This document shows positions 11,417 through 35,269 of a stretch of DNA of 35,269 nt, piece by piece. Under the pieces are notes generated by a model. The model made no database searches. It worked only from the letters and a program-made list of their open reading frames with translations, and was not told the origin of the DNA. The DNA is from a virus (Duplodnaviria; Heunggongvirae; Uroviricota; Caudoviricetes): the IMG/VR virus record IMGVR_UViG_2563366848_000003, one strand, 5' to 3'. The stretch's first letter is position 1; every line of letters begins with the position of its first letter. A program made the position numbers and the translations under genes.

Positions 11417-11443
11417 AGCCCGCCGGTTCAGGCGGGCTTTTTT
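11417..11443 (+). terminator. rho-independent terminator after lom
   Basis: AGCCCGCCggttcaGGCGGGCT followed by TTTTT. Confidence 0.6.
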
Positions 11444-11454
11444 GTGGGGGGAAT

Positions 11455-18460: not shown

Positions 18461-18525
18461 TAGATTTTCTGGCATTTTAGGTGGTTAGATAGATATTTAT
18501 GCTCTACGCAATGAATATGAGAGAA

Positions 18526-19191
18526 TTAATTGTCTAAGCTGGTATAATATGAATAAAGGCTTTTTCCCATTATTTTCTCTAAATCCTTTTTGTTTCTAAA
18601 GAAAATGTTTGAGATATGCTGATGATAATACTTTATAATGATTCTCATCAGCGCCGATACTACTTCATGAAGTTTTTTCACCATTTTATGCTGTGTTGAA
18701 TTACAATCTCCCTCCATAAGTGATATAAATGTTGATGTAACATTTAGGTTCGCTTGGGGGGAGGAGTGAACATAATAACAGGCGTTGATATAGACATTAT
18801 GTAAATAAGACCAGCCTTCATCGACTTGTTGGGCTTTTAAGAAGTCAAAGTCTCTACGACGTACAGTTTGGTCAAAATCCCCACCATTGTAGTTCTTATT
18901 GAGGCTTATTCTGGCCACATGCTCCACCATTGAGCGGAAGTTCAGTTGGAGATACCGTTCTCTTTTTTTTATAATGGCAATTAAGGAGTTTAAGGTATCA
19001 TATATAAAACCTTTTATATAAGAAGAGTGATTTAGATTAGGATTGTGACTTAAAATTGTATTACAAAGACTTATTTGCCTAAATATTGATACTGATTTGT
19101 TTATTTCATCAGTGGTTCTGAGGTGCTTTTGCACCTCCGCTCTAAAATAATTTACATCTCTTCCAATGTTGAAGGGATCCTGCGTGAGCAT
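18526..19191 (-). CDS. hypothetical protein (221 aa), third gene of the ParA-like operon
   Basis: AT-rich ORF; its start overlaps the stop of the upstream 132-aa gene (translational coupling). No family recognised by eye. Confidence 0.6.
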   Translation of the reverse strand: MLTQDPFNIGRDVNYFRAEVQKHLRTTDEINKSVSIFRQISLCNTILSHNPNLNHSSYIKGFIYDTLNSLIAIIKKRERYLQLNFRSMVEHVARISLNKNYNGGDFDQTVRRRDFDFLKAQQVDEGWSYLHNVYINACYYVHSSPQANLNVTSTFISLMEGDCNSTQHKMVKKLHEVVSALMRIIIKYYHQHISNIFFRNKKDLEKIMGKSLYSYYTSLDN

Positions 19192-19589
19192 TATTCTTCT
19201 TCCTTTTTATTTGCATTAATCCAAATATTTAAATTCCTTATAGCATGCTTGCTTTTAGATGTGGATTTTTGGCTTGTTTTATTTGCATCATTAAAAATAA
19301 TGTCTAATGTGTTAATGTTGTTTAAGAAATGCGTATAAGCCATCTTTATGTCATTCTCACTTAATTCATTAATATGTCTGCAAATTTTAGCGCACATCAA
19401 AGTTCTTGACCGTACAGCATAATTCAAAAAAGATATTTTGAAGGTTTTGTTAATAAATTTACTAACATCAAAATTTGATCTAAAAACCTCTTTTGAAAGA
19501 ATCAACATAATTACCAAGCCTAAGAAGTTTTCTTTGGTCATGGGCATATTATTAGCTTTATTGAGCGCTTTAATTAATTGTTTATTCAT
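19191..19589 (-). CDS. hypothetical small protein (132 aa), second gene of the ParA-like operon
   Basis: Start overlaps the ParA-like gene 3' end by 8 nt; Lys/Asn-rich; no family recognised. Could be a small centromere-binding or adaptor protein. Confidence 0.5.
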   Translation of the reverse strand: MNKQLIKALNKANNMPMTKENFLGLVIMLILSKEVFRSNFDVSKFINKTFKISFLNYAVRSRTLMCAKICRHINELSENDIKMAYTHFLNNINTLDIIFNDANKTSQKSTSKSKHAIRNLNIWINANKKEEE

Positions 19590-20427
19590 TTGTGTTACCT
19601 TCCAAGTGAGCCACTCTGTTAATAAATTCGTTACAGATCTTTTCTATATCTTGGCGTGACTTTGAATAACAAGAAGGAATATTTCCTTGATAACCTACCA
19701 TTAAATCACGCACGTAGGTTAATTGATTTTCAAAGAAATAAAAATTTGTAAATTGAGTATGGTTTTCGAATTGTTCTTTAATTTCCCTTGTTTTATTGGT
19801 CATTTCAGCATCAGTGTTTGTATAAATGTAACCGACTTGCTTGATTTCTTTCTCATGATGTGTGCGCATATTTCTTATAACGCTATTTAAACTGCTTGCT
19901 CCAAGCACCGAGTAGTGATCAATTTTAACCGGAGTAAGATAATAATCAGAAGCAAGGAGTGCGGTATCTGTAAATAATGAGATTGTTGGGGGGCTATCGA
20001 TAAAGATATAGTCGTAACTTTCTTTTAAGTCATTTTCGGTGATGAATTTACGCAACATTTTTATTCTAATACCCTCTTGGTTAGTATCAAAGATAATGTT
20101 TATATCACCTAAGATAATATCAAGATTGTCTGAAACTTTAGTAATGACCTGTTCTGGTGTCACTTTCTTTTCATCTTCCATTAATGAATTTGGAAGCTCA
20201 AAAATCTTTCGAATGGTTTGATTATTAGGGCGAAGGGCAGTCATATATTCTTCTACTCGATCATAATGCCCCATTAAGGACTGAGTGGCATTAAATTGAG
20301 GATCAATATCGATAACTAGAACCTTGCGCCCCATATGGTTGGCTAAAAACTCAGCAATCCCAACGCATAAAGTTGTTTTACCAACCCCACCTTTCATATT
20401 GATAAAACTAATTACTGGTGCAGTCAT
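19582..20427 (-). CDS. ParA/MinD-family P-loop ATPase (deviant Walker A)
   Basis: N-terminal FINMKGGVGKTTLCVGIAEFLA (KGGxGKT deviant Walker A), VIDIDPQ and downstream DSPP motifs typical of ParA/Soj; SD AAGGA 6-8 nt upstream of the ATG at 20427. Confidence 0.8.
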   Translation of the reverse strand: MTAPVISFINMKGGVGKTTLCVGIAEFLANHMGRKVLVIDIDPQFNATQSLMGHYDRVEEYMTALRPNNQTIRKIFELPNSLMEDEKKVTPEQVITKVSDNLDIILGDINIIFDTNQEGIRIKMLRKFITENDLKESYDYIFIDSPPTISLFTDTALLASDYYLTPVKIDHYSVLGASSLNSVIRNMRTHHEKEIKQVGYIYTNTDAEMTNKTREIKEQFENHTQFTNFYFFENQLTYVRDLMVGYQGNIPSCYSKSRQDIEKICNEFINRVAHLEGNTNE

Positions 20428-20465: not shown

Positions 20466-21175
20466 TATGCTGAAAGCATTTTTTAGCTTAATTTTTATAC
20501 TGCGCGTTGACTTATCACCCTATCATATATGATTTTTAGGTGTTGCATAGACTGGTTTTATATCAGGGGCTTAGGTTGTATGTGGCGTCACAGAATCACT
20601 AATCATTGAACTTTGTACATGTAACAGTCCGGTTAAATAATATATAATGGGTTGTTAAGTTGGCTCTCTGATTCCTGATGCCCCAAGGACGCGCGTCATT
20701 GCGTGCCAGATTAACTTTTCGTCGGGCACAGTGCTATCGGCAATTATTTCCTCAGCCTCTTTCCCGCATAGGTCTTGGCGCATCCATTTTCTTGCTATGA
20801 AATCTCCAGCCGGTCAGACTGAAAGTATAGAAGAGAATATGCGAATCGCTGTTCCGGTGTTTCTGGGAGAGCTTATGTCGGAGTAATTCCCCGGTAATTG
20901 AATCTCTTTTGCTCGCTCATAACAGACATTCACTACAGTTATGGTAGAAAGTATGTATGCTGATTGGGGAAAGTGTGAAAGAAAAGAAGACTGCTGCGCT
21001 GTTTGTCGTCACGTTTATCTTCATTGGCTATGCAAGTCATAATACAAGGTGGGACAAAACTGAGACACATAAGGCCTCACAATGGCTTGCAAGGCTTTAC
21101 ATGTTTTGATGTGGTGGGACGTGTGAGCACAGTGTTGATGGGGTAATACTTTGAATTAGAAGCGGATTCTTATAA

Positions 21176-21220
21176 TTCGTAATGCGAAGGTCGTAGGTTC
21201 GACTCCTATTATCGGCACCA
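21176..21220 (+). other. 45-bp 3' fragment of tRNA-Thr(CGU) (thrW-like): attachment-site remnant
   Basis: attcgtaatgcgaaggtcgtaggttcgactcctattatcggcacca contains the anticodon loop (CGT), T-arm GGTTCGACTCC and the 3' acceptor with CCA, but the preceding 30 nt do not form the D-arm or 5' acceptor, so it is not a complete tRNA gene. Confidence 0.75.
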
Positions 21221-21383
21221 TCTCAACTTCCTCAAACGTCCATATTTGTCCATAAATACCCTGATTTATAAAGACTTTTCTGCTTTTAAGTCCATCTTTG
21301 TCCGTAACCATCCAGTAGAATCCGATACGGAATGTGTATAGGATTGTGTATATGTTTCTGTTCTGTCCTGGATTCCTATACAC

Positions 21384-22553
21384 ATGCCTTTAAACGATAT
21401 GCAGATTCGTCGCGCTAAGCCTGAAGAGAAACCCTATACGCTTGGGGATGGTCAAGGCTTGTCATTACTTATAGAACCTAATGGGAGCAAGAGCTGGCGG
21501 TTTCGCTATCGCTATGCCGGTAAACCCAAAATGATCTCGCTTGGTGTTTACCCAACGATCACCCTTGCCGATGCTCGTTCCCGTCGTGACGAAGCCCGCA
21601 AATTGGTCGCCGAAGGAAAGAATCCGAGTGAGGTTCGAAAAGAGCAGAAGATTGCTTTGCAAACCGAGTCTGAAAGCGCGTTCGAAAAGATAGCGACAGA
21701 GTGGCACCAGATGAAATCTGCCAAATGGTCGGCCGGTTATGCATCAGACATCATGGAAGCTTTTCAGAACGATATTTTCCCTTATGTAGGTAAAAGGCCA
21801 ATTGGCGAAATAAAACCGCTAGAATTGCTTAATGTGCTGCGTAAAATTGAAAAACGAGGTGCGTTGGAGAAAATGCGGAAAGTGCGACAGCGTTGCTCGG
21901 AGGTTTTCCGTTATGCCATTGCTACAGGTAGAGCCGAGTTTAATCCTGCGGCAGATCTCTCAAGTGCCCTCGAAGTGCATCAATCCAATCATTTCCCGTT
22001 CCTTAAAGCTGATGAGTTACCTGATTTTTTGCGTGCTCTAGACAGTTACACAGGGAGTCGGCTTGTCCTTATTGCTACGAAGTTACTGATGATTACGGGC
22101 GTAAGAACCATTGAATTACGTGCAGCTTTATGGTCGGAATTTGATCTGGATAACGCTATTTGGGAAATACCAGCAGAAAGGATGAAAATGCGTAGGGCAC
22201 ACCTTGTGCCACTATCGACTCAAGCGTTAGATTTACTTAATGAACTCAAAGCGATGACAGGAAACTACCGTTATGTTTTTCCTGGACGAAATGATCCGAA
22301 TAAGCCAATGAGTGAGGCAAGTGTAAACCAAGTAATCAAACGCATTGGCTTTGGTGGCAAGGTTACAGGGCACGGATTCAGACATTCAATGTCTACTATT
22401 TTGCATGAGCAAGGATTTGAATCGAGTTGGATAGAGATGCAATTAGCTCATGTTGATAAAAACAGTATCCGAGGCACTTATAACCATGCTCAGTATTTTG
22501 ATAAACGCAGAGTTATGATGCAGTGGTATGCTGATTATGTACAGGGGAAATAA
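21384..22553 (+). CDS. int: P4-type tyrosine integrase
   Basis: 389-aa ORF with the P4-type N-terminal domain (IRRAKPEEKPYTLGDGQGLSLLIEPNGSKSWRFRYRYAGKPK) and a C-terminal catalytic domain (HGFRHSMSTILHEQGF ... HVDKNSIRGTYNHAQY); lies 164 bp downstream of the tRNA fragment. Confidence 0.95.
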   Translation: MPLNDMQIRRAKPEEKPYTLGDGQGLSLLIEPNGSKSWRFRYRYAGKPKMISLGVYPTITLADARSRRDEARKLVAEGKNPSEVRKEQKIALQTESESAFEKIATEWHQMKSAKWSAGYASDIMEAFQNDIFPYVGKRPIGEIKPLELLNVLRKIEKRGALEKMRKVRQRCSEVFRYAIATGRAEFNPAADLSSALEVHQSNHFPFLKADELPDFLRALDSYTGSRLVLIATKLLMITGVRTIELRAALWSEFDLDNAIWEIPAERMKMRRAHLVPLSTQALDLLNELKAMTGNYRYVFPGRNDPNKPMSEASVNQVIKRIGFGGKVTGHGFRHSMSTILHEQGFESSWIEMQLAHVDKNSIRGTYNHAQYFDKRRVMMQWYADYVQGK

Positions 22554-24053
22554 ATGCAAACTTCGAGAGCTATTAATAAAAATGTCGGGGGAAATGACTC
22601 TGAAAAATATCTTTCTAAGCTGTGTGAAAGAACTTTTTTAAGCTTGTGGAGTTATCCAAATGTTTATACTGATGAAGGAAAAAAAACGGCGTCGGGAGAT
22701 GGGAAGGAACTCTGTGATCTTCTAGTTGTATTTGAAAATCATGTCATAATATTTTCCGATAAAGATATTTCGTTTAAGGATTCAGGGGATTTAAAAGTTG
22801 ATTGGGGGCGTTGGGTTAAAAGGGCTGTTATTAAATCCGCAGTTCAACTTTATGGTGCCGAGTCATCATTAAAAGAGAGACCCGGTAGGTTATTTCTTGA
22901 TGCTAAGTGTAATGTCCCTTTTCCAATTAAAGTGCCAAAGTGTGACGAAATTATCGTTCACCGAATTGCTGTTGCAAAGAATGCATCAAAAAAATTCCAA
23001 GAGCATTCTGGCGGTTCTGGGAGTTTGATTATATGTCCGCGCATAGTGGGAAACCAACATTTTGATACTCCGTTTATGATCGGTCAGCCCATTGCTGACA
23101 AGCCTTATGTGCATGTTTTTGATGATATTGCTTTAGATATTATACTTTCTGAACTCGATACAATTGCTGATTTTATAGATTATCTTAGTAAGAAGGAAGA
23201 ATTTATTGCTTCAGGAGGACTAAACTCGGCAGCGGGAGAGGAAGAACTTTTAGCATGGTACTATATAAATGCTAAAGATGGGCGTGAGCCGGGGTTTTAT
23301 ATAGAGAAAGGAGTATCAGCTTTGATTGTTGAGGGGGCCTATGAATCTCTTAAAAACCTTCCTCAGTTTATTAGAGGGAAAGAACTAAATTCTAATTCTT
23401 ATTTTTGGGATGCCTGTATAGAAAATTTTGCGAAACATATGCTTAGTGGGACAATATTGTCCGAAGGGGATTTTTCATTTGATGAGATGACTCGTGGTCT
23501 AAGAATTATGGCATCCGAGACGAGATTTTCAAGGCGTATACTATCAAATGCAATAATTGAAAAAGTCACCTCCATCCCTCATGGGCAAAGAGGTGTTAGA
23601 GTTTTGGTCTCTCCCAGTAACAGCGATAATGGGTATGTTTGGCTAGTGGTTCCGGTGCCAGAATGTTGCACATCATATGATGACTATAGAAAATATCGTA
23701 AAGATACTCTCTCTGTTTACTGTGCTTCAGCAAAGCTACTTTTCCCGGATATGAAATATATAGTTGGAGTTGCCACAGAACCGATGGGGGGGAATGGAGG
23801 GGAAGATATGGTGTTTATTGATTCAACTCAGTGGACAGAGGATGACTACGAAAGAGCTCGAAAAGATAGAGATGAATTTAAAGCTTTACTTCCGGATAAT
23901 ATTAAAAGAACTGATGATCACGATTATCAATTCCCTATTCTTCCTGGAGACTATCCTGAAAAAGAAACTTTAAGGGTTGAAAAGAATAGTAAGGCTAGAA
24001 TAAAACGAATTAAAAAGGCGCAAAAAAAAGCCCGTAGAAATAACAGAAAATGA
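22554..24053 (+). CDS. hypothetical protein (499 aa), cargo at the integrase-proximal position; possible nuclease-like N-terminal region, basic C-terminal tail
   Basis: ATG immediately follows the int stop (TAAATG) with SD AGGGGA; AT-rich. N-terminal segment ELCDLLVVFENHVIIFSDKD is loosely reminiscent of a PD-(D/E)xK core (unverified); C-terminus KNSKARIKRIKKAQKKARRNNRK is highly basic. Confidence 0.7.
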   Translation: MQTSRAINKNVGGNDSEKYLSKLCERTFLSLWSYPNVYTDEGKKTASGDGKELCDLLVVFENHVIIFSDKDISFKDSGDLKVDWGRWVKRAVIKSAVQLYGAESSLKERPGRLFLDAKCNVPFPIKVPKCDEIIVHRIAVAKNASKKFQEHSGGSGSLIICPRIVGNQHFDTPFMIGQPIADKPYVHVFDDIALDIILSELDTIADFIDYLSKKEEFIASGGLNSAAGEEELLAWYYINAKDGREPGFYIEKGVSALIVEGAYESLKNLPQFIRGKELNSNSYFWDACIENFAKHMLSGTILSEGDFSFDEMTRGLRIMASETRFSRRILSNAIIEKVTSIPHGQRGVRVLVSPSNSDNGYVWLVVPVPECCTSYDDYRKYRKDTLSVYCASAKLLFPDMKYIVGVATEPMGGNGGEDMVFIDSTQWTEDDYERARKDRDEFKALLPDNIKRTDDHDYQFPILPGDYPEKETLRVEKNSKARIKRIKKAQKKARRNNRK

Positions 24054-24091
24054 GTTATGATCAAATCAAGGGCCTTTTTAAGGCCTTTGAA

Positions 24092-24874
24092 TCAATCTTT
24101 GGCGTGTGATTTAAATTTAAATGATATTTTTCTCTTGGTATTTCTTAAGGATTTTGAAATTCGCCATTTTAAATTGAATAAAGTATCCAATAGCTTTTCT
24201 GAGTTCTGCTTATTTAGTAGTCTGTGTTCTTGTCTTATCATAAGGAATATTTCAAGGTATGGGTCGTCAATTTTTTCTTCCAGTTCTTCACAAGAGTAGC
24301 TGTTGACACGTTCAAGAGCGATATATTCCATCCTTATCTCATTTGGTTCCCTTAAACTTGTTTTTTCCCATTCTAATCTAATTGGCTTACTAAAAAGGGA
24401 TATGTTCTCCTTAATATGTGCCATAACACGTCTAAAACGATTGTTAAATTCTTCATTATCAGTATGCATAACTGGTGATTGATTTCCTAATAATGTTGAA
24501 CTTTTTTCTCTTTGGAATTTGTAATATTCCTCTGATACTTTTTTGCTAAAGCTGGCTTGATCTGATTTATTCTTGAAGCTTATATGTTCATAACTATCCG
24601 GACCATATATTTGTTCCATCCAGTGCAACTGACTAAATTGATTGACGGCTTGTTCTAAATCTTTATCTTCTGATGTGTATGTTTTCTGTGATTTTATTTT
24701 GTAGTCGAAAAGTAGTAAGTCGCAAACATCGAAGTAGATTTTGTCATAAGTTCTTAGACGTTCTATTTTTCTATTGTATTTTGACTGGCGAATGGTATTT
24801 AAAAATCCTAGGCAGGATATGATAAAACCACCTATAGAAATATATAAAGAAATTGAAGTGTTATCCTGCACCAA
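24092..24874 (-). CDS. hypothetical membrane-anchored protein (260 aa) with an N-terminal transmembrane helix
   Basis: N-terminus MVQDNTSISLYISIGGFIISCLGFLNTI is a predicted TM helix followed by a charged domain of unknown function. Convergent with the 499-aa gene (38-bp gap); AT-rich. Confidence 0.65.
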   Translation of the reverse strand: MVQDNTSISLYISIGGFIISCLGFLNTIRQSKYNRKIERLRTYDKIYFDVCDLLLFDYKIKSQKTYTSEDKDLEQAVNQFSQLHWMEQIYGPDSYEHISFKNKSDQASFSKKVSEEYYKFQREKSSTLLGNQSPVMHTDNEEFNNRFRRVMAHIKENISLFSKPIRLEWEKTSLREPNEIRMEYIALERVNSYSCEELEEKIDDPYLEIFLMIRQEHRLLNKQNSEKLLDTLFNLKWRISKSLRNTKRKISFKFKSHAKD

Positions 24875-24980
24875 CTTTCTCCCCTCTGAAAAATAGAATT
24901 CTTAAACCTAAAATTAATTGCATCTTCGGATAAGCTTTTCTATCTCAAAAAATTTAAATGGTCAACTATATTGGTGCGCA

Positions 24981-24999
24981 ATGCTCTCCCCGCCACGCC
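24981..24999 (-). other. P2/P4-type cos-like site
   Basis: Reverse complement GGCGTGGCGGGGAGAGCAT matches the P2/P4 19-nt cohesive end GGCGAGGCGGGGAAAGCAC (recalled from memory) at 16 of 19 positions; located between the integrase-side cargo and psu, where cos sits in integrated P4. Confidence 0.5.
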
Positions 25000-25004
25000 T
25001 GCCC
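24987..25004. repeat. 18-bp direct repeat ccccgccacgcctgcccg, copy 1 (overlaps the cos-like site)
   Basis: Identical 18-mer found again at 25433-25450. Confidence 0.8.
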
Positions 25005-25432
25005 GTTTAAGAAGTCGCTTTTAATGCCGTTGCAACGGCGTACTCTGGCCGCGCCGCGAATGGCGCTAGCAGGGATTACAGCGACAGGAAAACACCTGCA
25101 AAACCATGCCTCGTTTGGATGCATTGCTTAAATCGGGAAAAATGACGGTATTTAGGAGGGGCAGGTTACTGAGCGGTAGTTCGGCGCGGTTATGGAGGTA
25201 AATTACACTCTATTCATTCGTGAAATTTTTAAAATTTTTTCACCCATCAAGCAGCGTCAAGCTTGGAATACTTGCTACCACGCTGTTCTGCACTAACCTG
25301 CTGATCTTCGCCCTTGTTCCTTATGTTTCAACAGCGCACCGCAGAGGCGAGATTCCCCCCGTCTTGACCATGCCAGCTCGTTGAAATTTGAAAAGATAAG
25401 CACCATTTAACATCTTAGCGCGCGCTCGTAGC

Positions 25433-25450
25433 CCCGCCACGCCTGCCCGC
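25433..25450. repeat. 18-bp direct repeat ccccgccacgcctgcccg, copy 2
   Basis: Identical to 24987-25004; the flanking sequence diverges from the cos consensus. Confidence 0.8.
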
Positions 25451-25602
25451 TTTATGTAGTGGTTTTCATGCAGGTGCATGAACGGTTCTCATCCATGCCG
25501 CGTGCGGTCTGAGAGGTAAAAATACCAGTACATAAAGTCATGCGGTTTCATGCAGCATAGCCATGCACTCTCAGCATCAACGGGAAAGTCAGAAAGTTGG
25601 CA

Positions 25603-25627
25603 TAAAAAACCGGCATAAAAGCCGGTT
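25603..25627 (-). terminator. rho-independent terminator downstream of the delta-like gene
   Basis: On the minus strand: AACCGGCttttatGCCGGTT followed by TTTTT, about 20 nt after the delta stop. Confidence 0.55.
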
Positions 25628-25646
25628 CGAGGATTGCTTTGAGCCG

Positions 25647-25922
25647 TCAGACAGGAATTTGCTGGCGGTTTGAGAGCCTGGAGGCTGCGCCATATTTTCC
25701 GAGTGTGTGAGCTGACTTCTCTGATTGCTCGCTTGCGGTTTCATCCTTGGTCTCAACCTTGTTAGGCCGGGCAATAATCGTGTCCACGCTCTCCAGTGCG
25801 GTGAATGTGCATGAGCACTCCAGGTTTTTGCACTGATAGTAAGTCCGCTTTATGGATGGGGCCTCATAAAAGCTTGAACGGGCATGTGAGATTGCGCCGC
25901 ACTCAGGACACTGTAAAGCCAT
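25647..25922 (-). CDS. Ogr/Delta-family zinc-finger late transcription activator
   Basis: MALQCPECGAISHARSSFYEAPSIKRTYYQCKNLECSCTFTALESV has the Ogr/Delta C-x2-C-x22-C-x4-C arrangement; start at 25922 with SD GGAGGA 6 nt upstream (the tabulated ORF begins 5 codons earlier). Confidence 0.85.
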   Translation of the reverse strand: MALQCPECGAISHARSSFYEAPSIKRTYYQCKNLECSCTFTALESVDTIIARPNKVETKDETASEQSEKSAHTLGKYGAASRLSNRQQIPV

Positions 25923-26475
25923 AGGCTTCCTCCGCAAGTTTCAGGCGCTTGAGCCTGTCCTGAAAAGTTTTATGCTTCGCCGGAGTGAATCTCTTCGAGG
26001 CATCCATGCGCATTGATGCATCAGGCGATAAACCTGATTCATCAAGGATTTCACGGCAGGACTCAAGCAGTTCTGGAGCATTGAGTTCCGAATAATGCGC
26101 CAGCGCCAAACGCAGCACACGTGCAGCAACATCAAGGCCAAAGGGGCCGTTCAGATAAGGTGCCAGCGCTGAGGTCAGCGCCTTGCCCGAATTTGCCATA
26201 AATTCACTCAAGGCATTATCAACACAGGCATCCACGACACTTCTCTGCGCGTAGAGACCATCATTTGCCGCACAGCTGATCTGCCATTCAAGCACTTCTA
26301 GCTTTTCTCTGAGAGTTTCAACCTGCCAGGCATAATTGTAAGGCTTATCTGCAGACAGCAACAATGCCTGCAGCCGTAGTTGGGCTGTACTTTGCTCGTT
26401 GCGAAGTGATAGCCAGCTCTGAGAAGCATCCCGGTAGTGATGCAGCGCTTCCTTAGGGGTAATTGTGGTGTCCAT
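25903..26475 (-). CDS. psu: Psu-like protein (polarity suppression / capsid decoration homologue)
   Basis: 190 aa, the same length as P4 Psu; recalled similarity in the C-terminal half (ALTSALAP..., KRFTPAKHKTF vs P4 ALAAALAP..., EKFTPAQNMIF). Confidence 0.65.
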   Translation of the reverse strand: MDTTITPKEALHHYRDASQSWLSLRNEQSTAQLRLQALLLSADKPYNYAWQVETLREKLEVLEWQISCAANDGLYAQRSVVDACVDNALSEFMANSGKALTSALAPYLNGPFGLDVAARVLRLALAHYSELNAPELLESCREILDESGLSPDASMRMDASKRFTPAKHKTFQDRLKRLKLAEEAYGFTVS

Positions 26476-26569
26476 CAGCTTTGCTGCGTATTACCGTGAA
26501 GGAGATCGGTGAGTAACATCGATGGAGATCGGTTCGTGTCACTTTCACAGAACCGTTTTTAAATTACCT

Positions 26570-27319
26570 TCACTGATCTCCTTCGGTCAACGGAGATTGT
26601 ATTTTCCGCATTGATTCTCCTTTAAGTTCGATCTTGATACTGCCATGAACCAGTCGATCTAGGATGGCATCCGCATGTGTGGAGTCTCCGATCATTTTGT
26701 ACCAGTTTTCCACCGGCAACTGGCTCACTACGATGATTGAGCCTCGTTGGTACATCAGATCCACTATTTCCAGCAGGTCGCTACGCTGTTCTGATGAGAG
26801 AGGTTCCAGCCCCCAGTCATCCAGAAGCAGCAGATCGCTATTATTCAGCCTGGTCAAAAGTTTGCTGTATCTTCCATCAGCATGCCCCTGATAGCACTGT
26901 TCCATCAGCGCTTTAAGGCGATAATAGTAGACCTTGTATCCCTGTCGGCAGGCATTATGACCAAGTGCACATGCCAGGAACGTTTTACCGCTGCCGGTGG
27001 CCCCGGTCAGTAAAATATTTTGTTTCAGGGTTAACCAGTTTCCCTGACTGAGTGAACGGATGAGGGCCCTGTCCAGCCCTCTATTGTTACGATAATCCAG
27101 CTTTGATAACTCAGCATTAAGTCTGAACCGTGCATGTTTGATCAGACGCTCTGCCTTCCTGTTTTCACGGCAGGTTAGTTCTTCTGCTGTCAGTAATGAC
27201 AGGCGTTCTTCGAAGCCCAGCTCCTGGTATGTGCCCGGCTGAGCAAGTTGCTTTTTAAGCGCATCACGGAAGCCGGTGAGTTTAAGTGCGGTCAGTTGTT
27301 CGTAAAGATGATTCATCAT
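26570..27319 (-). CDS. istB: IS21-family transposition helper ATPase IstB
   Basis: 249 aa with Walker A GATGSGKT and Walker B LLLLDDWG, IstB/DnaC-like. Confidence 0.93.
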   Translation of the reverse strand: MMNHLYEQLTALKLTGFRDALKKQLAQPGTYQELGFEERLSLLTAEELTCRENRKAERLIKHARFRLNAELSKLDYRNNRGLDRALIRSLSQGNWLTLKQNILLTGATGSGKTFLACALGHNACRQGYKVYYYRLKALMEQCYQGHADGRYSKLLTRLNNSDLLLLDDWGLEPLSSEQRSDLLEIVDLMYQRGSIIVVSQLPVENWYKMIGDSTHADAILDRLVHGSIKIELKGESMRKIQSPLTEGDQ

Positions 27320-27330
27320 TGGATCCCGTA

Positions 27331-28872
27331 TCAGTGGTAATACTCACTGCCGCGTACGTTTTCGTGTTCCATCGTGGATAACAGATCTGGTTTTGGATCC
27401 TGAACAGGTTGTTTATCCAGACCTTTTTCCAGGATCGATTTAATACCTGACAGACGCCATACCTTTGTTTTCAGAGCTCTTGCACATGCTGCATTAAGTC
27501 TGGCTTTACTGTATTTTTTATGAAGGTTCAGGAGTCCAAGGCAGAAGCGATAGCTTTGTTCCGGATGTGGACGAGAGTTCAGTATATGAAGCACATAACT
27601 ATGAGTTTCACTGCCTATGTGCCCCGCCCATTCCAGAAGACGCTCTGGCGTCCAGGTGGCATGCTGTCGATGAGCTTCAGGCATGTGCTCGTTGCGGGTA
27701 CTGTAGCCATAAGTACGCTTGCGCGGGTGCACAGCAACCTCCTGCCCCTGATTGAAGAGTCTTACCAGTTCTCCGGAGATCCATGCTTCCAGTTGCTGGC
27801 CTAACAGCGAACATGGAACCGAGTAGTAATGTTTGTCGATTTCCACGTGGTAATCGGCATGAACTCTGACTTTCTTCACCAGGGTGTAACTGTAACTGGC
27901 TTCAGGAAGAGGCTTCAGTGCGGGTTTATCAAGCTGGATGAAGAGTTCTGCACGTGAATAACCCAACTTCTGCATTATTTTGTTATTCAGTCTTTCCAGC
28001 AACTCCCGAATGCGCTGATTAAGCGATGCAAGGCTGTAGAAGATCTCATGCCTGATTCGGGCCATGATCCAGCGTTCAACAACCTGAACGCCAACTTCAG
28101 CTTTGGCTTTATCTTTCGGTTTACGTGGCCGCGCAGGCAAAACTGCGACATTATAATGCTCAAGCATCTGCTGGTAGGTAGGGTTAACGTCAGGATCATA
28201 CTTACATGCCCTGGATGTGGCGCTTTTCAGATTGTCCGGAACAACAAGTTCAGGAACGCCACCCAACCACTGGAAGCAGCGAACATGACTCATCACCCAG
28301 TCTTCAAGCTGCTGAGACCAGGTGGCCTCTGCCCATGTGTAACTTGATGCCCCGAGAACAGCTACGATGACCTGAGCAGTTCTTATTTCTCCGGTCTCAG
28401 GGTCGGTAACGCCAACGGTAGGTCCACAGTAATCAACGAAAAGTTTTTCGCCAGCTTTATGTACCTGACGCATTGATGGTGAAGTGGTTTTGAGCCATTC
28501 ACGGTACATCCGGCAGTAATGGTTATAGCTGTAAAAACCGCCTGGATTACGCTCACAGTATTCTTCCCAGAGTAGCTGCAGCGTCACGCATTTATTACGC
28601 AGTTCCCGGTGTACTGTAGCCCAGTCAGGCAGAGAGTGCTTCTTCATCTTAACCTGGGTCTGAAGGAACGCATGTTTTAGTTTTGTATCATCCCATCCTG
28701 TAGGTAAGGGCCACTGCTTTATGCCAAGTTGAGCCGCCCGATTAGCATATCTGGATACAACGGAAGGGGAGATTGCAAGACTACGACCAATTTGTCGATG
28801 GCTGAGTCCAACACCGTATTTAAGCCTAAGAATTTCTTTAAGTTTTCTCATAGAAATTGGAACTGTTGGCAT
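27331..28872 (-). CDS. istA: IS21-family transposase IstA
   Basis: 513 aa with an N-terminal HTH (LKYGVGLSHRQIGRSLAISPSVVSRY) and a DDE core; located 11 nt upstream of istB. Confidence 0.93.
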   Translation of the reverse strand: MPTVPISMRKLKEILRLKYGVGLSHRQIGRSLAISPSVVSRYANRAAQLGIKQWPLPTGWDDTKLKHAFLQTQVKMKKHSLPDWATVHRELRNKCVTLQLLWEEYCERNPGGFYSYNHYCRMYREWLKTTSPSMRQVHKAGEKLFVDYCGPTVGVTDPETGEIRTAQVIVAVLGASSYTWAEATWSQQLEDWVMSHVRCFQWLGGVPELVVPDNLKSATSRACKYDPDVNPTYQQMLEHYNVAVLPARPRKPKDKAKAEVGVQVVERWIMARIRHEIFYSLASLNQRIRELLERLNNKIMQKLGYSRAELFIQLDKPALKPLPEASYSYTLVKKVRVHADYHVEIDKHYYSVPCSLLGQQLEAWISGELVRLFNQGQEVAVHPRKRTYGYSTRNEHMPEAHRQHATWTPERLLEWAGHIGSETHSYVLHILNSRPHPEQSYRFCLGLLNLHKKYSKARLNAACARALKTKVWRLSGIKSILEKGLDKQPVQDPKPDLLSTMEHENVRGSEYYH

Positions 28873-29050
28873 AGGTATCCTTTACCGGAATGGCAAAAGA
28901 TACAGATCAACACACCTGTGAAGTTCCAATAACATTGATGGAGATCACTGAATAACAAAATGAGTCAAAAGTGATCTCCATCGATGTTATTCAGCGATCT
29001 GTTCAAATGTTATTACCCGATCTCGATGGAAGTTATTGAGTGATCTCCTT

Positions 29051-29812
29051 TCATGAAAATACGCAGCTTTGCCCCTTCTTCGCTTTTTCACGCTGTTTTT
29101 GTATGCGGATTTGCGCCGCCGGGCTGGGGGCGTTCTGAATATCCTGATAGGCACTATTATCAGCAAGTACACCAATTTTATTCAGGAAAGGGTCACTCTG
29201 CAGAGAGGCATTCTGTTTCAACGCCGGATTAGTGATTGAAGAAGTAATGAAATCCCGCAATAGCGTTTCAGGATCATTCACAGAATGGACAACACCAATT
29301 ACAGAGCTGGCACTTCTCCCTTTTGTCACTTTGAGAAGGCTTAAAAGCTGGATAAGGGTTTGACCATGCTGCTTCATAAAATCATGCCAAAGCTGGTTAA
29401 CATGGGTTTCGATAAGATTATCATGTGCCTGAATGTAACCACGGGCCAGTTCCGCCGTTTTCCATGGGAGATACTCATTCTCTCCGGCATGGGCCGCAAG
29501 CAGATCATCAAACTCGTCGAGTGTTTCACGCCCCAGGGCAATCTCAGCCCTTAGTTTTTTCATTTTCGGCGTTACCTGTCCCTGGTTTTCATGAAACATC
29601 TGACGCCATTCTTCATTTTGCGCCTTTGCCTCCGTTTCCGTTTCTACACGGCGTTTACGGATTGTTGCGAGCATCGCAGCAGCATCAATTTGTTTGCGAC
29701 GGGCTTCCGTCCAGGCTGATTTGGCAGCATTCACTTTTTCAAGCGCCTGTTGTGTCGCAGCAGGGATAGAAATATCAGCAGTCGATTTATTGCTCTGGTC
29801 TGGGATAGTCAT
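29051..29812 (-). CDS. sid: Sid-like capsid size determination protein, C-terminus altered by the IS21 insertion
   Basis: N-terminus MTIPDQSNKSTADISIPAATQQALEKVNAAKSAW resembles P4 Sid; about 250 aa, coiled-coil rich. The last 4 codons and stop (CVFS*) are read from the IS end. Confidence 0.6.
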   Translation of the reverse strand: MTIPDQSNKSTADISIPAATQQALEKVNAAKSAWTEARRKQIDAAAMLATIRKRRVETETEAKAQNEEWRQMFHENQGQVTPKMKKLRAEIALGRETLDEFDDLLAAHAGENEYLPWKTAELARGYIQAHDNLIETHVNQLWHDFMKQHGQTLIQLLSLLKVTKGRSASSVIGVVHSVNDPETLLRDFITSSITNPALKQNASLQSDPFLNKIGVLADNSAYQDIQNAPSPAAQIRIQKQREKAKKGQSCVFS

Positions 29813-30049
29813 GTCAGCACCTTGTTGTTTGTGTTGGTGTCAATTGTGCTGTGATGCATACAAAGCCGCCATTGAACGCCATTGTGCGAGCGACAAGACA
29901 AAGACCTCTTTTGGCTAGCCAAGAAAGGCCTCGTTTAACTGAGTCAGTTTCAGACTTACATTAACTGTTCACTACTATTCACTTAGGTAAAAAAATAGAT
30001 AATACAGTAGGTTATAAGGTGAAGGGTTGGCATGGCAGTATTCATCGAC

Positions 30050-30067
30050 TGTTCATAACTGTTCACA
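30050..30067. promoter_or_regulatory. TGT-N12-ACA motif (Ogr/Delta-type activator site) upstream of sid
   Basis: TGTtcataactgttcACA, ~240 bp upstream of the sid start in an AT-rich divergent intergenic region that also holds repeated ctgttca / ctattcac motifs (29943-29968, 30046-30070, 30131-30170). Confidence 0.3.
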
Positions 30068-30729
30068 TGGGAATAAAATTATTTATGGTATTTTTTCATA
30101 ATGGATGGTTTTTTATTCCTCGTAGCTATTTGTTTTTTGCTCCTCACCACTATTCACCCTTATTCAGTAGTATTCGACAGGCGCTGAAATAGACTGCCTG
30201 TTATTGCCGGGAAATAACATTTTCGCCTCTGACCATGGTGTTGCATTTCATACTGATTTTTATAAAACTAGAACTGTCCGGTTCTTTATGGATTCATGCG
30301 GATATATTTTAAGATTTAAGATGAAATTATTTAATATCAAGGTTTTTATGCAGACCCAATGTTTATAAGTTGGATGCGATTCAAAAATATGCCCGGAAAT
30401 TGGGGCCTGCAATGCAAGGCCTCGTGTAGAAGTTGTACTGCCTTGCTGTATTGGCGGTGGGGTCAGCACTATCAGGTGCAATGACCCATGGGGTAGTTAA
30501 CTCATTGATGAATGGTAGTTCCTATTAATGCTCCTATATTTATAGCCCGCAGGCATAGTATTTATTATGTTGTTTTATATGGTTTGATCGGGTTTTAAGT
30601 TTCATGAAATCAATATGTGACGCTAAATAAATAATGCGTGCGCAGGCGGTTTATATACACATAATAAGGAACTACCTGAACCCGGATAAATTCATCAGGT
30701 CTGTTGTGGAAATTAAAGAGGGTAGATAA

Positions 30730-30990
30730 ATGCGTAATATTTCTGTGTCTGCGCCAGCTCCGGCTGCGCCATTATTTCCTGTACCGAACCAGCATGAACG
30801 ATTTTTACGCCTGCCTGAGGTGATGCACTTATGCGGGTTGTCCCGTTCGACCATTTACGACCTGATCAGTCGCGATGCGTTTCCGAAGCAGATCCCGCTT
30901 GGCGGTAAAAATGTTGCCTGGGCACAGTCTGAGGTCAGCGCATGGATGGCGGACCGTATCAGCGCCCGTGGGCGGGGATGTGATGCATGA
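30730..30990 (+). CDS. alpA: AlpA/Vis-family DNA-binding regulator (phage-island excisionase-like)
   Basis: [53 protein letters not shown] is the AlpA helix-turn-helix signature; SD AGAGGG 8 nt upstream of the ATG at 30730. Confidence 0.8.
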
Positions 30991-31117
30991 TGATACCTGA
31001 ATACAATAAATACCTTTTTTCAGGCTTGCTTACTGTCGTCATTTCCAGGTATAGTTTTTCCGCTGTCGCAAAATCGGCAGCCGGAATTGGCGTTCCGCGA
31101 AACTCAATGGCGACACC

Positions 31118-31141
31118 AGACGCGCCAGGCGTCTTTTTTTT
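31118..31141 (+). terminator. rho-independent terminator after alpA
   Basis: AGACGCgccagGCGTCT followed by TTTTTTTT. Confidence 0.55.
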
Positions 31142-31349
31142 CGTCGTAGCTCAGGCACACCCATTTTCCGGGCTGTGGTGTTTGTGTGTACACCGTAGTT
31201 CTTTCGAGATAATGGCAGTCCGGGCGGGGCAGCCTTCGGGCTGGCCGGTATCCATTGAGGCCGGTTACGCCAACCCCGTTCGGGCTGCCACCAGTGAAAT
31301 TGGCGTTTCCGGTGGTAGCAATAACCGCTACTCAATGGAGGCTGCCATC

Positions 31350-31544
31350 ATGGCTACAATCCTCACCCCGTCATATCCGCAATATGTCTTTGTGTTTGCC
31401 GCAATCCGCCGTGCTGACACTCAACCCCGCATTTGTATGCTTCGCACTGTCGCCTGCGATGAGCGTTCCGCGCGCCGTTCGCTGGTCCGTGATTATGTGC
31501 TCTCCCTTTCTGCACGCCTGCCTGCCGGGGAGGTGACGCTATGA
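31350..31544 (+). CDS. small hypothetical protein (64 aa)
   Basis: ATG with SD GGAGG 8 nt upstream ([64 protein letters not shown]). The tabulated 185-aa ORF (30987-31544) spans the alpA terminator, so only this 3' portion is taken as coding. Confidence 0.5.
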
Positions 31545-31762
31545 ACCAGTTTGAGATTTCTTACGACGATGTTGTAAGGCTGAAACATTTACGCAATGTG
31601 GGTGAGTATGTAACTGGCATGGCAGCCCTGCAGGACTGTTATGAAAAGCCAGCAGGTGCCCAATGCGAACAACTGGTTTCCCTCATTTATCTGATGACAG
31701 AGCAACTGGATGGAGTGGTGCAACGCTGCCATGACGACCTGATGAATGCGGAGGTGGCCTGA
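31541..31762 (+). CDS. small hypothetical protein (73 aa)
   Basis: ATGA overlap with the preceding ORF (translational coupling); no family recognised. Confidence 0.5.
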
Positions 31763-32085
31763 TGAAATGCTGTGAATCTCATCTGGTACTTCGTGCCGCT
31801 CTGTATCGCCGTGCCGTAGCCTGTGCCTGGCTGACTATCAGTTGTCAGCAGGAACGTTATTCCGGCCTGACGCTCGCTGAACTTGAAGATGCCATAGCCC
31901 GCGAGCTGGAAGGGTTCTATCTGCGCCAGCATGGGCAGCAAAGAGGACTGGAAATTGCCTGCGCGTTGCTTTCGGATCTGATGGAGTCGGGGCCGCTTAA
32001 AGCCTGTCCGGTTCTCTCACTGCTCGGAATGACGGTCATGGATGAACTTTGTTCCCGTCACCTCAACAAACCAGCGCTGCACTGA
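31762..32085 (+). CDS. hypothetical protein (107 aa)
   Basis: Start overlaps the stop of the preceding ORF; ends 13 nt before the primase start; no family recognised. Confidence 0.5.
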
Positions 32086-32098
32086 GGAGGGCCGCACA

Positions 32099-34432
32099 AT
32101 GTCAGGAATGAAAGTTAGCCAGGCAGAGAAAGCAGCTCGTGGTCACTGGTCAAGAATTTTACCTGCACTGGGTGTAACCGTACTGAAAAATCGGCACCAG
32201 CCCTGCCCGGTCTGTGCCGGGAAAGACCGCTTTCGATTTGATGACCAGGAAGGGCGGGGAACGTGGTTCTGTAACCAGTGCGGGGCAGGTGATGGCCTGG
32301 CGCTAGTAAGTAAAGTACTGGATGTAGGCATTAGTGAAGCGGCAGACAGAATAAACGGTATTACCGGAAACCTGCCGCCAGTATCTCAGGAAATGCATGA
32401 ATCTGGTTCTCCTGAAAAAGAGGACGGGAAAAAAGCTGCAGCAGTGCTGGCTGCCCGTTTGTTTGATAAGTCCCGTCAGACCACAGGCAATGCCTATCTG
32501 ACGAGTAAAGGGTTTCCTGCACTGCCTTGCCGGGAATTAACCGCCATGCATAAAGTCGGTGGTGTGGCATTTCGCGCGGGAGATCTTATCGTTCCATTGT
32601 ATGCAGATGGAGAGCTGGTAAATCTGCAGTTAATCAACGCTGATGGGGGCAAATGCTTCCTTAAAGGCGGTCAGGTTAAGAATGCCTTTTACCTGATTGA
32701 AGGTACTGCCAAAGCAGCCAAACGGCTCTGGATAGCGGAAGGATATGCCACCGCACTCACTATCAACCATCTGACTGGCGATGCTGTCATGGTGGCCTTT
32801 TCATCCGTCAATTTCCTTTCCCTGGCGAGCATTGCCTGCAGTCAGTACCCAACGCGCCAGATAATTATTGCTGCTGACCGCGATCTCAACGGTGCGGGGC
32901 AAACAAGGGGCGAAGCTGCTGCCAGGGCCTGCAATTGCACAATGGCGCTCCCACCTGTGTATGGTGACTGGAACGATGCATTCACGCAGAACGGCGAAGA
33001 AGCCACCCGGCTGGCAATTTATGAAGTAATAAAACCAGTTGTTGCCAGCCCTTTCGACACAATGAGCGAAGCTGAATTTACCGCTCTGAGTGTCAGCGAA
33101 AAAGCGCAGAGGGTAGTGGATCACTATAAAAATTCACTGGCAGTAGACCCGAACGGGCAGCTCCTTTCACGCTATGAGGCGGGGGCCTGGAAAGTTATCT
33201 ATTACGCCGATTTTGCCCGTGATGTCGCTGCGCTGTTTCAGCGCCTCGACGCACCTTTTTCATCCGCGAAAATTGCGTCTCTCGTGGAAACCCTCAAACT
33301 GATCGTTCCGCAACAGCAGAATCCGGCGCGGCAACTTATCGGATTTCGCAACGGTGTGCTCGATACCCGGACAGGATTGTTCAGCCCGCACGATAAGAAG
33401 CACTGGTTACGTACGCTGTGCGAGGTGGATTACACGCAGCCCGTTGACGGCGAGTCACTGGAAACCCATGCCCCGGCATTCTGGCGCTGGCTGGATCGTG
33501 CCGCAGGTTTTAATCCTGAAAAGCGGGACATTATTCTGGCTGCATTGTTTATGGTGCTGGCTAACCGTTATGACTGGCAGCTTTTTCTGGAGGTCACTGG
33601 CCCTGGCGGAAGTGGAAAGAGTATTCTTGCTGAAATAGCAACCATGCTGGCGGGTGAAGATAACGCTACCTCGGCAACCATTGAAATGCTTGAGTCGCCA
33701 AGAGAACGAGCTGCGTTAATAGGTTTTTCACTGATTCGACTTCCCGACCAGGAAAAGTGGAGCGGTGACGGGGCCGGACTAAAAGCCATCACTGGCGGCG
33801 ATGCGGTATCCGTTGATCCCAAATATCAGAACGCCTATTCAACTCACATCCCGGCGGTCATCCTGGCTGTGAACAATAACCCGATGCGTTTCACTGATCG
33901 TAGTGGTGGAGTTTCACGCCGAAGGGTGATCCTGCATTTCCCCGACCAGATAGCACCGGAGGAACGAGATACTCAGCTCAAAGAGAAGATTGCCAGCGAG
34001 CTGGCGGTAATTGTTCGCCAGCTTATGCAGCGTTTCAGTGATCCAATGAGCGCAAGAGCATTACTTCAGTCGCAGCAGAATTCCGATGAAGCACTCACCA
34101 TCAAACGTGATGCTGATTCAGCGTTTGATTTTTGCGGCTACCTTGAAGTCCTGCCTGACACCACGGGCATGTTTATGGGTAATGCTAACATTGTCCCACG
34201 TCAGCCTCGTACATACCTTTACCATGCCTATCTGGTCTATATGGAGGCTAACGGCTATAAAAACACGCTCAGTCTGACCATGTTTGGCAAGGGGCTGCCG
34301 TTAATGCTGAAAGAGTATGGGCTGCAGTACGAGAAGCGGCGGACCAATCAGGGAATGCAGACTAACCTGGCCCTCAGGGAGGAAAGCAATGCTGACTGGC
34401 TACCTAAATGCGATGATCCTGTATCTACTTAA
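32099..34432 (+). CDS. P4 alpha-type primase-helicase (zinc-binding, TOPRIM primase and P-loop helicase domains)
   Basis: 777 aa from the ATG at 32099 (SD GAGGAGG 8 nt upstream), the same length as P4 alpha. Zinc-binding motif HQPCPVCAGKDRFRFDDQEGRGTWFCNQCG; TOPRIM-like segment; Walker A GPGGSGKS. The tabulated ORF starts 19 codons earlier. Confidence 0.9.
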   Translation: MSGMKVSQAEKAARGHWSRILPALGVTVLKNRHQPCPVCAGKDRFRFDDQEGRGTWFCNQCGAGDGLALVSKVLDVGISEAADRINGITGNLPPVSQEMHESGSPEKEDGKKAAAVLAARLFDKSRQTTGNAYLTSKGFPALPCRELTAMHKVGGVAFRAGDLIVPLYADGELVNLQLINADGGKCFLKGGQVKNAFYLIEGTAKAAKRLWIAEGYATALTINHLTGDAVMVAFSSVNFLSLASIACSQYPTRQIIIAADRDLNGAGQTRGEAAARACNCTMALPPVYGDWNDAFTQNGEEATRLAIYEVIKPVVASPFDTMSEAEFTALSVSEKAQRVVDHYKNSLAVDPNGQLLSRYEAGAWKVIYYADFARDVAALFQRLDAPFSSAKIASLVETLKLIVPQQQNPARQLIGFRNGVLDTRTGLFSPHDKKHWLRTLCEVDYTQPVDGESLETHAPAFWRWLDRAAGFNPEKRDIILAALFMVLANRYDWQLFLEVTGPGGSGKSILAEIATMLAGEDNATSATIEMLESPRERAALIGFSLIRLPDQEKWSGDGAGLKAITGGDAVSVDPKYQNAYSTHIPAVILAVNNNPMRFTDRSGGVSRRRVILHFPDQIAPEERDTQLKEKIASELAVIVRQLMQRFSDPMSARALLQSQQNSDEALTIKRDADSAFDFCGYLEVLPDTTGMFMGNANIVPRQPRTYLYHAYLVYMEANGYKNTLSLTMFGKGLPLMLKEYGLQYEKRRTNQGMQTNLALREESNADWLPKCDDPVST

Positions 34433-34443
34433 CGATTCATCGA

Positions 34444-34466
34444 CCCGGCGAATGCCGGGTTTTTTT
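34444..34466 (+). terminator. rho-independent terminator after the primase gene
   Basis: CCCGGCgaatGCCGGG followed by TTTTTTT. Confidence 0.65.
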
Positions 34467-34716
34467 ATGCCTCAAGGCTAAATGTAGAGTTTGGTGTTCA
34501 CTCTACACTATATTGTTAACTTCTATTTTATTGATATTAATAGTAATAATCTGGTGGTGAACAGTATGAATGGTTTGCTCAAGAAAAAGTATTTTGTTGG
34601 ATATTGAGATGAGTGATTTTTGAACGCCTTTGCCAGTGTGTATAGCTATGTGTATAGGATTATTTTTCGATAAAAATAAATAATTTAAAAACAATGCCTT
34701 GACATCTATTTTTCAT

Positions 34717-34732
34717 TCCTATTATCGCACCA
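34717..34732 (+). repeat. imperfect direct repeat of the tRNA-Thr 3' end (putative right att core of the P4-like element)
   Basis: tcctattatcgcacca versus tcctattatcggcacca at 21204-21220 (one-base deletion); lies between the primase terminator and the host LysR gene in an AT-rich stretch. Confidence 0.55.
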
Positions 34733-34858
34733 TTAAAATCAAAGAGTTACCCCATATTTAAATACACCACGTTTCCTCCTGTGCCGTATTTGTGCCATTG
34801 TAACCTTGGCAATTCATCAAAATACTGTTCTGACATCAGGCAGTGCAGGTGCAGACAT

Positions 34859-35269
34859 TTAAGCCAATTGCTGCCGCCATTCTTTGACGTAGTCAATCAG
34901 GGCGCGGAGCTTTGGTGCAATATTGCGACGCTGTGGGAAATACAGATAGAAGCCCGGAAATTGTGGAAGAAAGTCATCAAGCAGCGATACAAGCTTACCG
35001 CTTTCAATATATGGCCTGAAAGTTTCCTGAGTGGCAATTGTTATTCCTCCGCCGGCAAGAGCCAGCCTCAACATCAGACGCAGATCATTAGTCGTAATCT
35101 GCGGTTCAATCGCAAGGTCGAAAGTTCTCCCGTTTTCTTCAAATGGCCAGCGATAAGGCGCAACCTCCGGGGACTGACGCCAGCCGATACACTTATGGGT
35201 ATTTCCCCCGGAGGCGAGAAAGCGCTCTCCACGCCCGGCCGCAAGGATCAGGACGACGGGGGCAGGCAT
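34859..35269 (-). CDS. LysR-family transcriptional regulator, C-terminal substrate-binding part (N-terminus outside the window)
   Basis: Minus-strand frame is open to the window edge; the sequence (...LMLRLALAGGGITIATQETFRPYIESGKLVSLLDDFLPQFPGFYLYFPQRRNIAPKLRALIDYV) is typical of LysR effector-binding domains; ~50% GC, host-like. Confidence 0.8.
   Translation of the reverse strand: MPAPVVLILAAGRGERFLASGGNTHKCIGWRQSPEVAPYRWPFEENGRTFDLAIEPQITTNDLRLMLRLALAGGGITIATQETFRPYIESGKLVSLLDDFLPQFPGFYLYFPQRRNIAPKLRALIDYVKEWRQQLA

Follow-up and report, generated by a model that had tools for sequence, protein, structure and literature searches.

The single-G copy of the thrW 3' end as the probable attR core of a P4-like satellite

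Introduction

Does an imperfect direct repeat at the far end of a tRNA-associated island mark a damaged attachment site, or is it the form in which the element carried that site? The question is raised by a stretch of DNA of 35,269 nucleotides (IMG/VR virus record IMGVR_UViG_2563366848_000003, Caudoviricetes; hereafter the window, meaning the whole stretch analysed), in which positions 34717-34732 (TCCTATTATCGCACCA) repeat positions 21204-21220 (TCCTATTATCGGCACCA) with one G of a GG pair as the sole difference. A preliminary description, made from the sequence alone, had taken the shorter copy to be a degenerate version of the tRNA 3' end at the right boundary of a P4-like element, and had suggested that the one-base deletion may weaken excision. 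Our study places the probability at about 0.9 that 34717-34732 is the core of the attR of a 13.5-kb P4-like satellite at the 3' end of thrW, in which the missing G is native to the element-side core rather than damage and the crossover lies 3' of it. In general terms the site is an ordinary one, as attachment sites of P4-like satellites at tRNA hotspots are thoroughly known as a class.

Results

The two repeats and the left end of the satellite

Alignment of 21204-21220 with 34717-34732 revealed identity save for the single G, and so upheld the earlier account of a 16-bp near-copy of the last 17 nt of a tRNA-Thr fragment. By pattern search, TCCTATTATCGCACCA and TCCTATTATCGGCACCA are each present once in the window; 2.2e-4 exact matches to any one-deletion variant of the 17-mer would be expected in 35 kb on both strands, and none of 2000 shuffles gave such a variant. 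The identity runs one base further, to a T at 21221 and at 34733 (alignment A1). The two copies of the putative 7-bp overlap region, GCACCAT, are found at 21215-21221 (plus strand; the invariant columns G71-T77 of A1) and at 34727-34733 (plus strand), where the junction between island and host would fall inside the right copy or at its end. The attR core itself (34717-34732, plus strand), assigned by alignment and genome counts as the single-G form of the thrW 3' end, is sited where it had first been described, between the primase terminator (hairpin at 34442-34461) and a LysR-type open reading frame (34859, minus strand).

The left repeat belongs to a 46-nt 3' fragment of thrW (21175-21220, plus strand) that extends from the anticodon loop to CCA and is identical to the thrW of BL21 and F404 from ATTCGTAATG onward. 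Its last 17 nt, with GG, serve as the attL core of the satellite. No complete tRNA was found by ARAGORN anywhere in the window, so the left repeat is a fragment and not the true thrW; a true thrW elsewhere in the window was considered and rejected on the same result. The same 46-nt fragment with the same upstream flank was seen in O157:H7 (L006 3209). The fragment at 21175-21220 is the attR of an upstream lambdoid prophage, and the P4-like element therefore stands second in a tandem array. The previous reading of 21204-21220 as part of a tRNA-Thr fragment was thus right in identifying thrW, but the fragment is itself the attachment site of the neighbouring prophage.

Positions 1-14349 of the window hold a lambdoid tail module (major tail protein, tape measure, L, K, J, Lom and side tail fibre). 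The right end of this prophage is a low-GC (0.31-0.44) accessory block at 15706-20427 (minus strand), which encodes a GmrSD-type type IV restriction enzyme at 15706-17655 (PADLOC mREase_IV, 1439 bits), a ParA/AAA_31 ATPase at 19582-20427 and three open reading frames without a family (18026-18409, 18526-19191 and 19191-19589); it is possibly a prophage-borne defence cluster.

Gene content of the satellite

P4-like satellites have been described by seven core components, int, psu, delta, sid, alpA, epsilon and alpha (PMC8628076). Judged by its gene content, the element at 21221-34716 (13,496 bp, GC 0.459) is a P4-like satellite: it carries an integrase and alpA, its psu, delta and sid are clustered, with an insertion sequence between sid and psu, and in the circular form alpha would be parted from int only by the attachment site. 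From alpha to the end of the island there are only a terminator, the P arm and the core, and from the core to int there is only the P' arm. The order of int, delta, psu, the sid-like gene, the AlpA/Vis homologue, orf106 and alpha is that of P4. The position of epsilon is taken by an Ash-family gene, and comparison by BLASTP with P4 epsilon and orf151 gave no match at E <= 1e-3.

The integrase (21384-22553, plus strand, 389 aa) is a P4-type tyrosine integrase with the Pfam domains Arm-DNA-bind_3, Phage_int_M and Phage_integrase, and is 39.6% identical to P4 Int by BLASTP. Its catalytic domain is full-length, with the residues R...HGFRH...LAH...GTY visible in the translation, and its DNA is matched at 100% identity in strain B379, whose annotation gives the integrase as intact. 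Between int and delta, in the cargo hotspot, lies a gene for an uncharacterised protein of 499 aa with a predicted PD-(D/E)xK nuclease-like fold and a conserved D55/D69/K70 block (22554-24053, plus strand), for which sequence searches of Pfam, NCBIfam, PADLOC and PDB returned no match. A second cargo open reading frame of 260 aa (24092-24874, minus strand, GC about 0.33), annotated as a hypothetical protein in B379, likewise had no match in Pfam, NCBIfam, PADLOC or PHROGs; beside it lies an alternative open reading frame at 24057-24299 (plus strand). The 260-aa frame is missing from a Yersinia satellite that has the 499-aa gene, and is therefore probably independent cargo. The module of int plus cargo is rare, and was found in one complete E. 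coli genome, B379, at 100% identity. In B379 (L010 14001-18092 and 12581-13858) the satellite is truncated by an IS26-bounded resistance region carrying TEM-1, mer, sul3, cmlA1 and aadA1, and it stands behind a different phage, whose integrase adjoins the junction and whose element-side core is GG.

The remaining genes were assigned as follows: delta, an Ogr/Delta zinc finger, at 25647-25937 (minus strand; Pfam PF04606 and BLASTP to P4 delta); psu at 25903-26475 (minus strand; Pfam PF07455 and BLASTP to P4 psu); a sid-like gene of 253 aa in the Psu-like fold family at 29051-29812 (minus strand; Pfam Psu, and 23% identity to P4 Sid by BLASTP, E 3.5e-11); an AlpA/Vis homologue of 86 aa at 30730-30990 (plus strand; Pfam Phage_AlpA, PF05930), a candidate excisionase and late regulator that is 65% identical to P4 ORF88, itself annotated as 'excisionase and transcriptional regulator'; the Ash-family gene (PF10554) at 30987-31544 (plus strand); a DUF5375 homologue of P4 orf106 at 31762-32085 (plus strand; Pfam, 73% identity); and the alpha primase-helicase at 32042-34432 (plus strand; Pfam, 73% identity to P4 alpha). 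The primase gene is followed by an intrinsic terminator-like hairpin (34442-34461) with a T run (34442-34468 in all, plus strand). The satellite backbone is 92% identical to that of the O157:H7 thrW satellite and 87% identical to that of F404.

The insertion sequence is an IS21-family element (26499-29050, minus strand, ends approximate; Pfam IstB_IS21 and rve, NCBIfam transpos_IS21) with istB at 26570-27319 and istA at 27331-28872 (both minus strand) and terminal inverted repeats at 26499-26551 and 28998-29050. It was inserted at the sid/psu junction, where the two genes adjoin or overlap in F404 and O157:H7, and may disturb their expression and packaging. With it the satellite reaches 13.5 kb, compared to 11.6 kb for P4. 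The insertion left int, vis and both attachment sites intact; together with the tandem context it could affect the satellite life cycle, and not obviously recombination.

Architecture of the attachment site

The element has at both ends a direct repeat of the tRNA 3' end, with ends that coincide with the empty site, and both cores are accompanied by arm-type repeats whose positions are conserved among relatives. Four copies of the motif TGTGTATAG are present in the window where 0.29 would be expected, and each lies within 130 bp of a core. The P' arm (21221-21383, plus strand) holds two direct arm-type repeats, at 21332-21343 (ATGTGTATAGGA) and 21344-21355 (TTGTGTATATGT) on the plus strand, and one inverted copy at 21373-21385 that overlaps the int start codon; the direct pair lies 113 nt after the left core, and one of its members is a near copy, TGTGTATAT. 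The P arm (34469-34716, plus strand, GC 0.32) holds ori-like repeats and two adjacent arm-type repeats, at 34636-34647 (GTGTGTATAGCT) and 34648-34659 (ATGTGTATAGGA) on the plus strand. The ori-like repeats resemble P4 ori type-I repeats and were seen as GTGTTCAC at 34495 and TGTTCACC at 34556 (minus strand).

The right pair stands at -80/-68 from the core, and the left-arm offsets from the core are +129 and +171/172; F404 and O157:H7 share both sets of offsets, even though identity across the arms is only about 85%. The right pair was also found in nine species-representative genomes and at many IMG/VR loci. Based upon the layout of the P4 attP and the Arm-DNA-bind_3 domain of the integrase, the five repeats would be arm-type Int-binding sites. 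Other thrW elements (L007, L008 and L094) have the single-G core, but with a paired arm repeat GGGGGTAC x2 upstream, like the P4 motif GGGGGCA and at the same distance from the core as the pair in the window. As the arms differ and the core is shared, one core appears to be used by integrases of differing arm specificity.

Distribution of the single-G core

Exact-word searches for the core plus thrW flank were made across 5,426 complete E. coli genomes. The single-G core was found with the thrW flank in 676 + 388 = 1,064 of these (about a fifth), and the GG form with the flank in 1,636 + 372 genomes (empty sites and 46-nt-type attR). The same 16-mer is the right core of the F404 satellite (Drt3), of the unrelated Ag43/CbtA island of AR_0151 and of the O157:H7 satellite, and its element-side neighbour differs in all three. 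Further afield, the 18-mer TTCCTATTATCGCACCAT was carried by about 32 species representatives of enterobacteria, drawn from at least 15 genera, with another 15 or so matches in unrelated taxa, about the number expected by chance, and the single-G core was present at 49 genuine IMG/VR loci. In tandem arrays (L007, L008, L009 and L073) it forms the internal junction and is followed by the int-proximal arm of the next element; in L073 arms of the window type stand on both sides of it, a junction equivalent to attP.

The two forms are not distributed at random with respect to the ends. In every element with both ends visible (12/12: the window, F404, O157:H7 and nine IMG/VR loci) the upstream, tRNA-side core is GG and the downstream core is G, which points to strand exchange 3' of the G position. 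Across the loci examined, about 83% of element-side cores are G and 17% GG, whereas tRNA-side cores are GG in 18 cases and G in 1. At ten IMG/VR loci GG is found with a left flank of element type; two of these loci have TGTGTATA arms, and one is the apparently circular contig L120.

Two records extend this picture. An IMG/VR record of 12,914 bp (L120) has the same 77 nt at 1-77 and 12838-12914, including TCCTATTATCGGCACCA and the element arm. From this terminal repeat it is apparently a circular, excised thrW-specific element (~12.8 kb) with GG in its attP core, and as such would indicate that a GG attP also exists in a related element family. The sole single-G case among the 19 tRNA-side cores comes from a Buttiauxella metagenome-assembled genome (L019 2064-2139), in which a full-length thrW orthologue at attL has the single G and is followed by an element-type arm; ARAGORN called it as tRNA-Thr CGT of 74 nt, and its acceptor stem would be one base short. 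This could reflect an integration in which strands were exchanged left of the indel, a gene conversion or a faulty assembly; exchange or conversion on that side of the indel may thus happen occasionally, or the Buttiauxella assembly may be wrong. The G/GG polymorphism is compatible with a base that lies beyond the overlap region, and it speaks against a heavy cost of either form.

These distributions bear directly upon the suggestion that the 16-mer is a decayed attR, in which a G was lost after integration, excision was reduced or abolished and the island became fixed. Such a history would account for the one-base difference between attL and attR, and the minority of element-side cores with GG elsewhere does make GG a viable form as well. 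However, an identical single-G core follows a variety of elements whose neighbouring sequences differ, and it is present in 1,064 complete E. coli genomes and about 32 other enterobacterial species; repeated identical deletions are implausible, and at the internal junctions of tandem arrays the single G cannot be a host-side scar. We therefore regard decay as very unlikely. The 16-mer is the standard attR at this locus, shared by unrelated islands and other genera, and the term degenerate does not hold; with a post-integration deletion unlikely in view of so widespread an identical 16-mer, our data also lend no support to weakened excision.

More improbable still is that the single-G 16-mer is chromosomal, an old scar inherited with the thrW-yagP flank beside which the islands landed. 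In E. coli the 16-mer does always come with the same host flank, which in turn is a relic of an older integrase gene. Against this, in L007, L008, L009 and L073 the 16-mer is followed by another element's int-proximal arm rather than by the host flank, quite different flanks follow it in other genera, and empty sites have no extra 16-mer after thrW.

The island/host boundary and the right flank

The boundary was examined with an 810-bp query across the site, which matched 3,882 of the 5,426 complete E. coli genomes, with most of the query covered in only 23. Most of the alignments listed (the best place per record) start at query base 257/258, which is window position 34716/34717. In BL21 the full thrW is followed directly by the sequence found here after 34732, and in CFS3313, B-1109 and similar genomes a full tRNA-Thr is followed by a flank 100% identical to that of the window. 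These empty thrW loci put the junction exactly after 34732, at 34732/34733, and so confirm the right boundary of the P4-like element as first described. They are at odds with the accompanying statement that base composition is host-like only from ~34860: the host resumes at 34733, and 34733-34858 is a conserved host flank that stands directly after thrW in empty sites. For the same reason this stretch, despite its low GC, was rejected as island DNA. A boundary elsewhere, such as near 34860 where GC rises from 0.405 (34733-34858) to 0.528 (34859-35269), with the 16-mer a chance similarity, is hardly credible given the chance expectation of 2.2e-4, the start of most listed host alignments at 34716/34717 and the empty sites that join thrW directly to 34733 onward.

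Homology to the final codons of an old integrase pseudogene (minus strand) covers the first ~70 bp of the flank, so that even the 'empty' thrW site of E. coli is a relic of an earlier integration. The homology was seen at 34733-34800 (minus strand), and the pseudogene is longer in ST131 (L003 3032-3235); the translation NGTNTAQEE is common to the flank in the window and to ST131, where the remnant reads ...LEMVRR*AHLS.... Beyond the flank, the gene earlier described as a host LysR gene is indeed of LysR type, but it is not intact: 34859-35197 (minus strand) is a C-terminal remnant with the substrate-binding domain only (Pfam LysR_substrate positions 103-207 of 209). In this backbone type, as annotated in BL21, F404 and K-12, it is a pseudogene without its N-terminus, whereas it is full-length in O157:H7. 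The gene paoD starts at ~35248.

Discussion

Our study suggests how a one-base difference between the two ends of an island could arise without any decay. Integration would split the satellite attP such that the P arm (34469-34716) and the core form attR, and the thrW 3' end and the P' arm (21221-21383) form attL. The integrase (21384-22553), through its N-terminal arm-binding domain, would bridge arm and core sites and, with the AlpA/Vis homologue (30730-30990), would recombine attL with attR and excise the satellite. In most thrW-specific elements with an integrase of this family, the single G would be native to the half of the core on the element side; as the G state goes together with the P arm, the attP of the element would itself be single-G and exchange would take place 3' of the G. 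The candidate region is the 7-bp GCACCAT, which comprises the discriminator base, CCA and one flanking T, and which is the only sequence 3' of the indel that is common to, and invariant in, the attP-like junctions, the empty attB, attL and attR. Overlap regions of tyrosine recombinases are usually 7 bp in size, and partner sites of an arm-binding integrase are expected to agree over 6-8 bp. Exchange inside GCACCAT would mean that integration leaves the tRNA sequence unaltered. The attP junction of the satellite is predicted to read ...TTTTCATTCCTATTATCGCACCATCTCAACTTCC... (single G), and excision would restore the 46-nt fragment (GG, the lambdoid prophage attR) joined to the host flank TTAAAATCAAAG.

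From these comparisons we infer where exactly the overlap lies, the parts played by Int and Vis and the present competence for excision. A contiguous attP with both arms of the satellite was not found in the phage collection or in the complete E. coli genomes, where only the left-arm half was matched, so the satellite attP is reconstructed rather than observed. Two short 'phage' records that matched the attP query proved to be ordinary attL junctions with a full thrW, and the three exact matches to the predicted junction in IMG/VR were all internal junctions of tandem prophage arrays, none of them an excised circle. Searches of the literature for the thrW attR core or for P4 Int cleavage positions returned only general statements that thrW is an integration hotspot.

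It is tempting, if doubtful, to see the one-base offset as a selected design of thrW-specific P4-type integrases rather than a neutral polymorphism. Were it so, the heterology just 5' of the overlap would restrict exchange to the final bases of the tRNA. No integration would then alter the tRNA, neither branch migration nor homologous exchange could proceed into its body, and recombination of attL with attR might differ kinetically from that of attP with attB.

The limits of the satellite are now fixed to the base, with the element at 21221-34716 and the cores at 21204-21220 and 34717-34732. Because int, the Vis homologue, the five arm repeats and both cores appear intact from their sequences, the island should be treated as potentially mobile and not as fixed. 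Imperfection in the direct repeat of a tRNA-associated island does not on its own show that the site has decayed. What is mildly new here is only the placement of the crossover in the last 7 bp by a conserved indel. The rule of GG on the left and G on the right offers a cheap, sequence-only marker of the position of strand exchange for this integrase family, and also marks the order of elements in tandem arrays at thrW.

Among known systems, the O157:H7 thrW satellite has the same locus, the same 46-nt fragment and upstream flank at attL and the same single-G 16-mer at attR. It too stands in tandem behind a lambdoid prophage remnant, a tandem that presumably corresponds to Sp1/Sp2 of Sakai and CP-933H/CP-933I of EDL933, and its backbone is 92% identical over 29246-34416. 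The two differ in the cargo of the hotspot, which is a set of the ABC-three-component type in O157:H7 and the 499-aa predicted nuclease in the window. O157:H7 also has an extra gene between primase and attR, no IS21 and an intact LysR gene, and the upstream prophage is much larger in the window than in O157:H7.

At the attR of CP4-6 in K-12 the same 46-nt fragment, with GG, stands directly before the same host flank as in the window. This fragment belongs to lambdoid integrases of the P22/Sf type, which are of another family and have a longer core than the P4-like site; the core of P22 we take to be 46 bp long. In CP4-6 (L005 959-2545) intF lies beside attR. Its start codon is ~110 bp from a 46-49-nt thrW fragment and its transcription runs into the prophage, which mirrors what is seen at attL in the P4-type arrangement.

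The closest parallel in architecture is the attP of P4 at leuX, which has the same order of alpha, terminator, ori-type repeats, P arm, core, P' arm and int. The annotated P4 terminator occupies the same place after alpha as the hairpin in the window, and the crr of P4 contains ori type-I repeats like TGTTCACC in the P arm here. The arm repeats of the P4 attP, as annotated in GenBank, have the same layout, with two adjacent copies on the alpha side, two adjacent copies on the int side and one inverted copy; in P4 as in the window there are 113 nt from the core to the int-side pair, and the inverted copy lies over the int ATG. The two systems differ in their tRNA target (leuX, tRNA-Leu, for P4 and thrW for the satellite of the window), in the arm motif (GGGGGCA compared to TGTGTATAG) and in their integrases, which are only 39.6% identical. 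In the window the element-side core lacks one base of the tRNA sequence, whereas the core annotated in P4 spans 20 bp and is presumably identical to leuX. In both P4 and the satellite of the window, the core is the 3' end of a tRNA gene with the terminal GCACCA.
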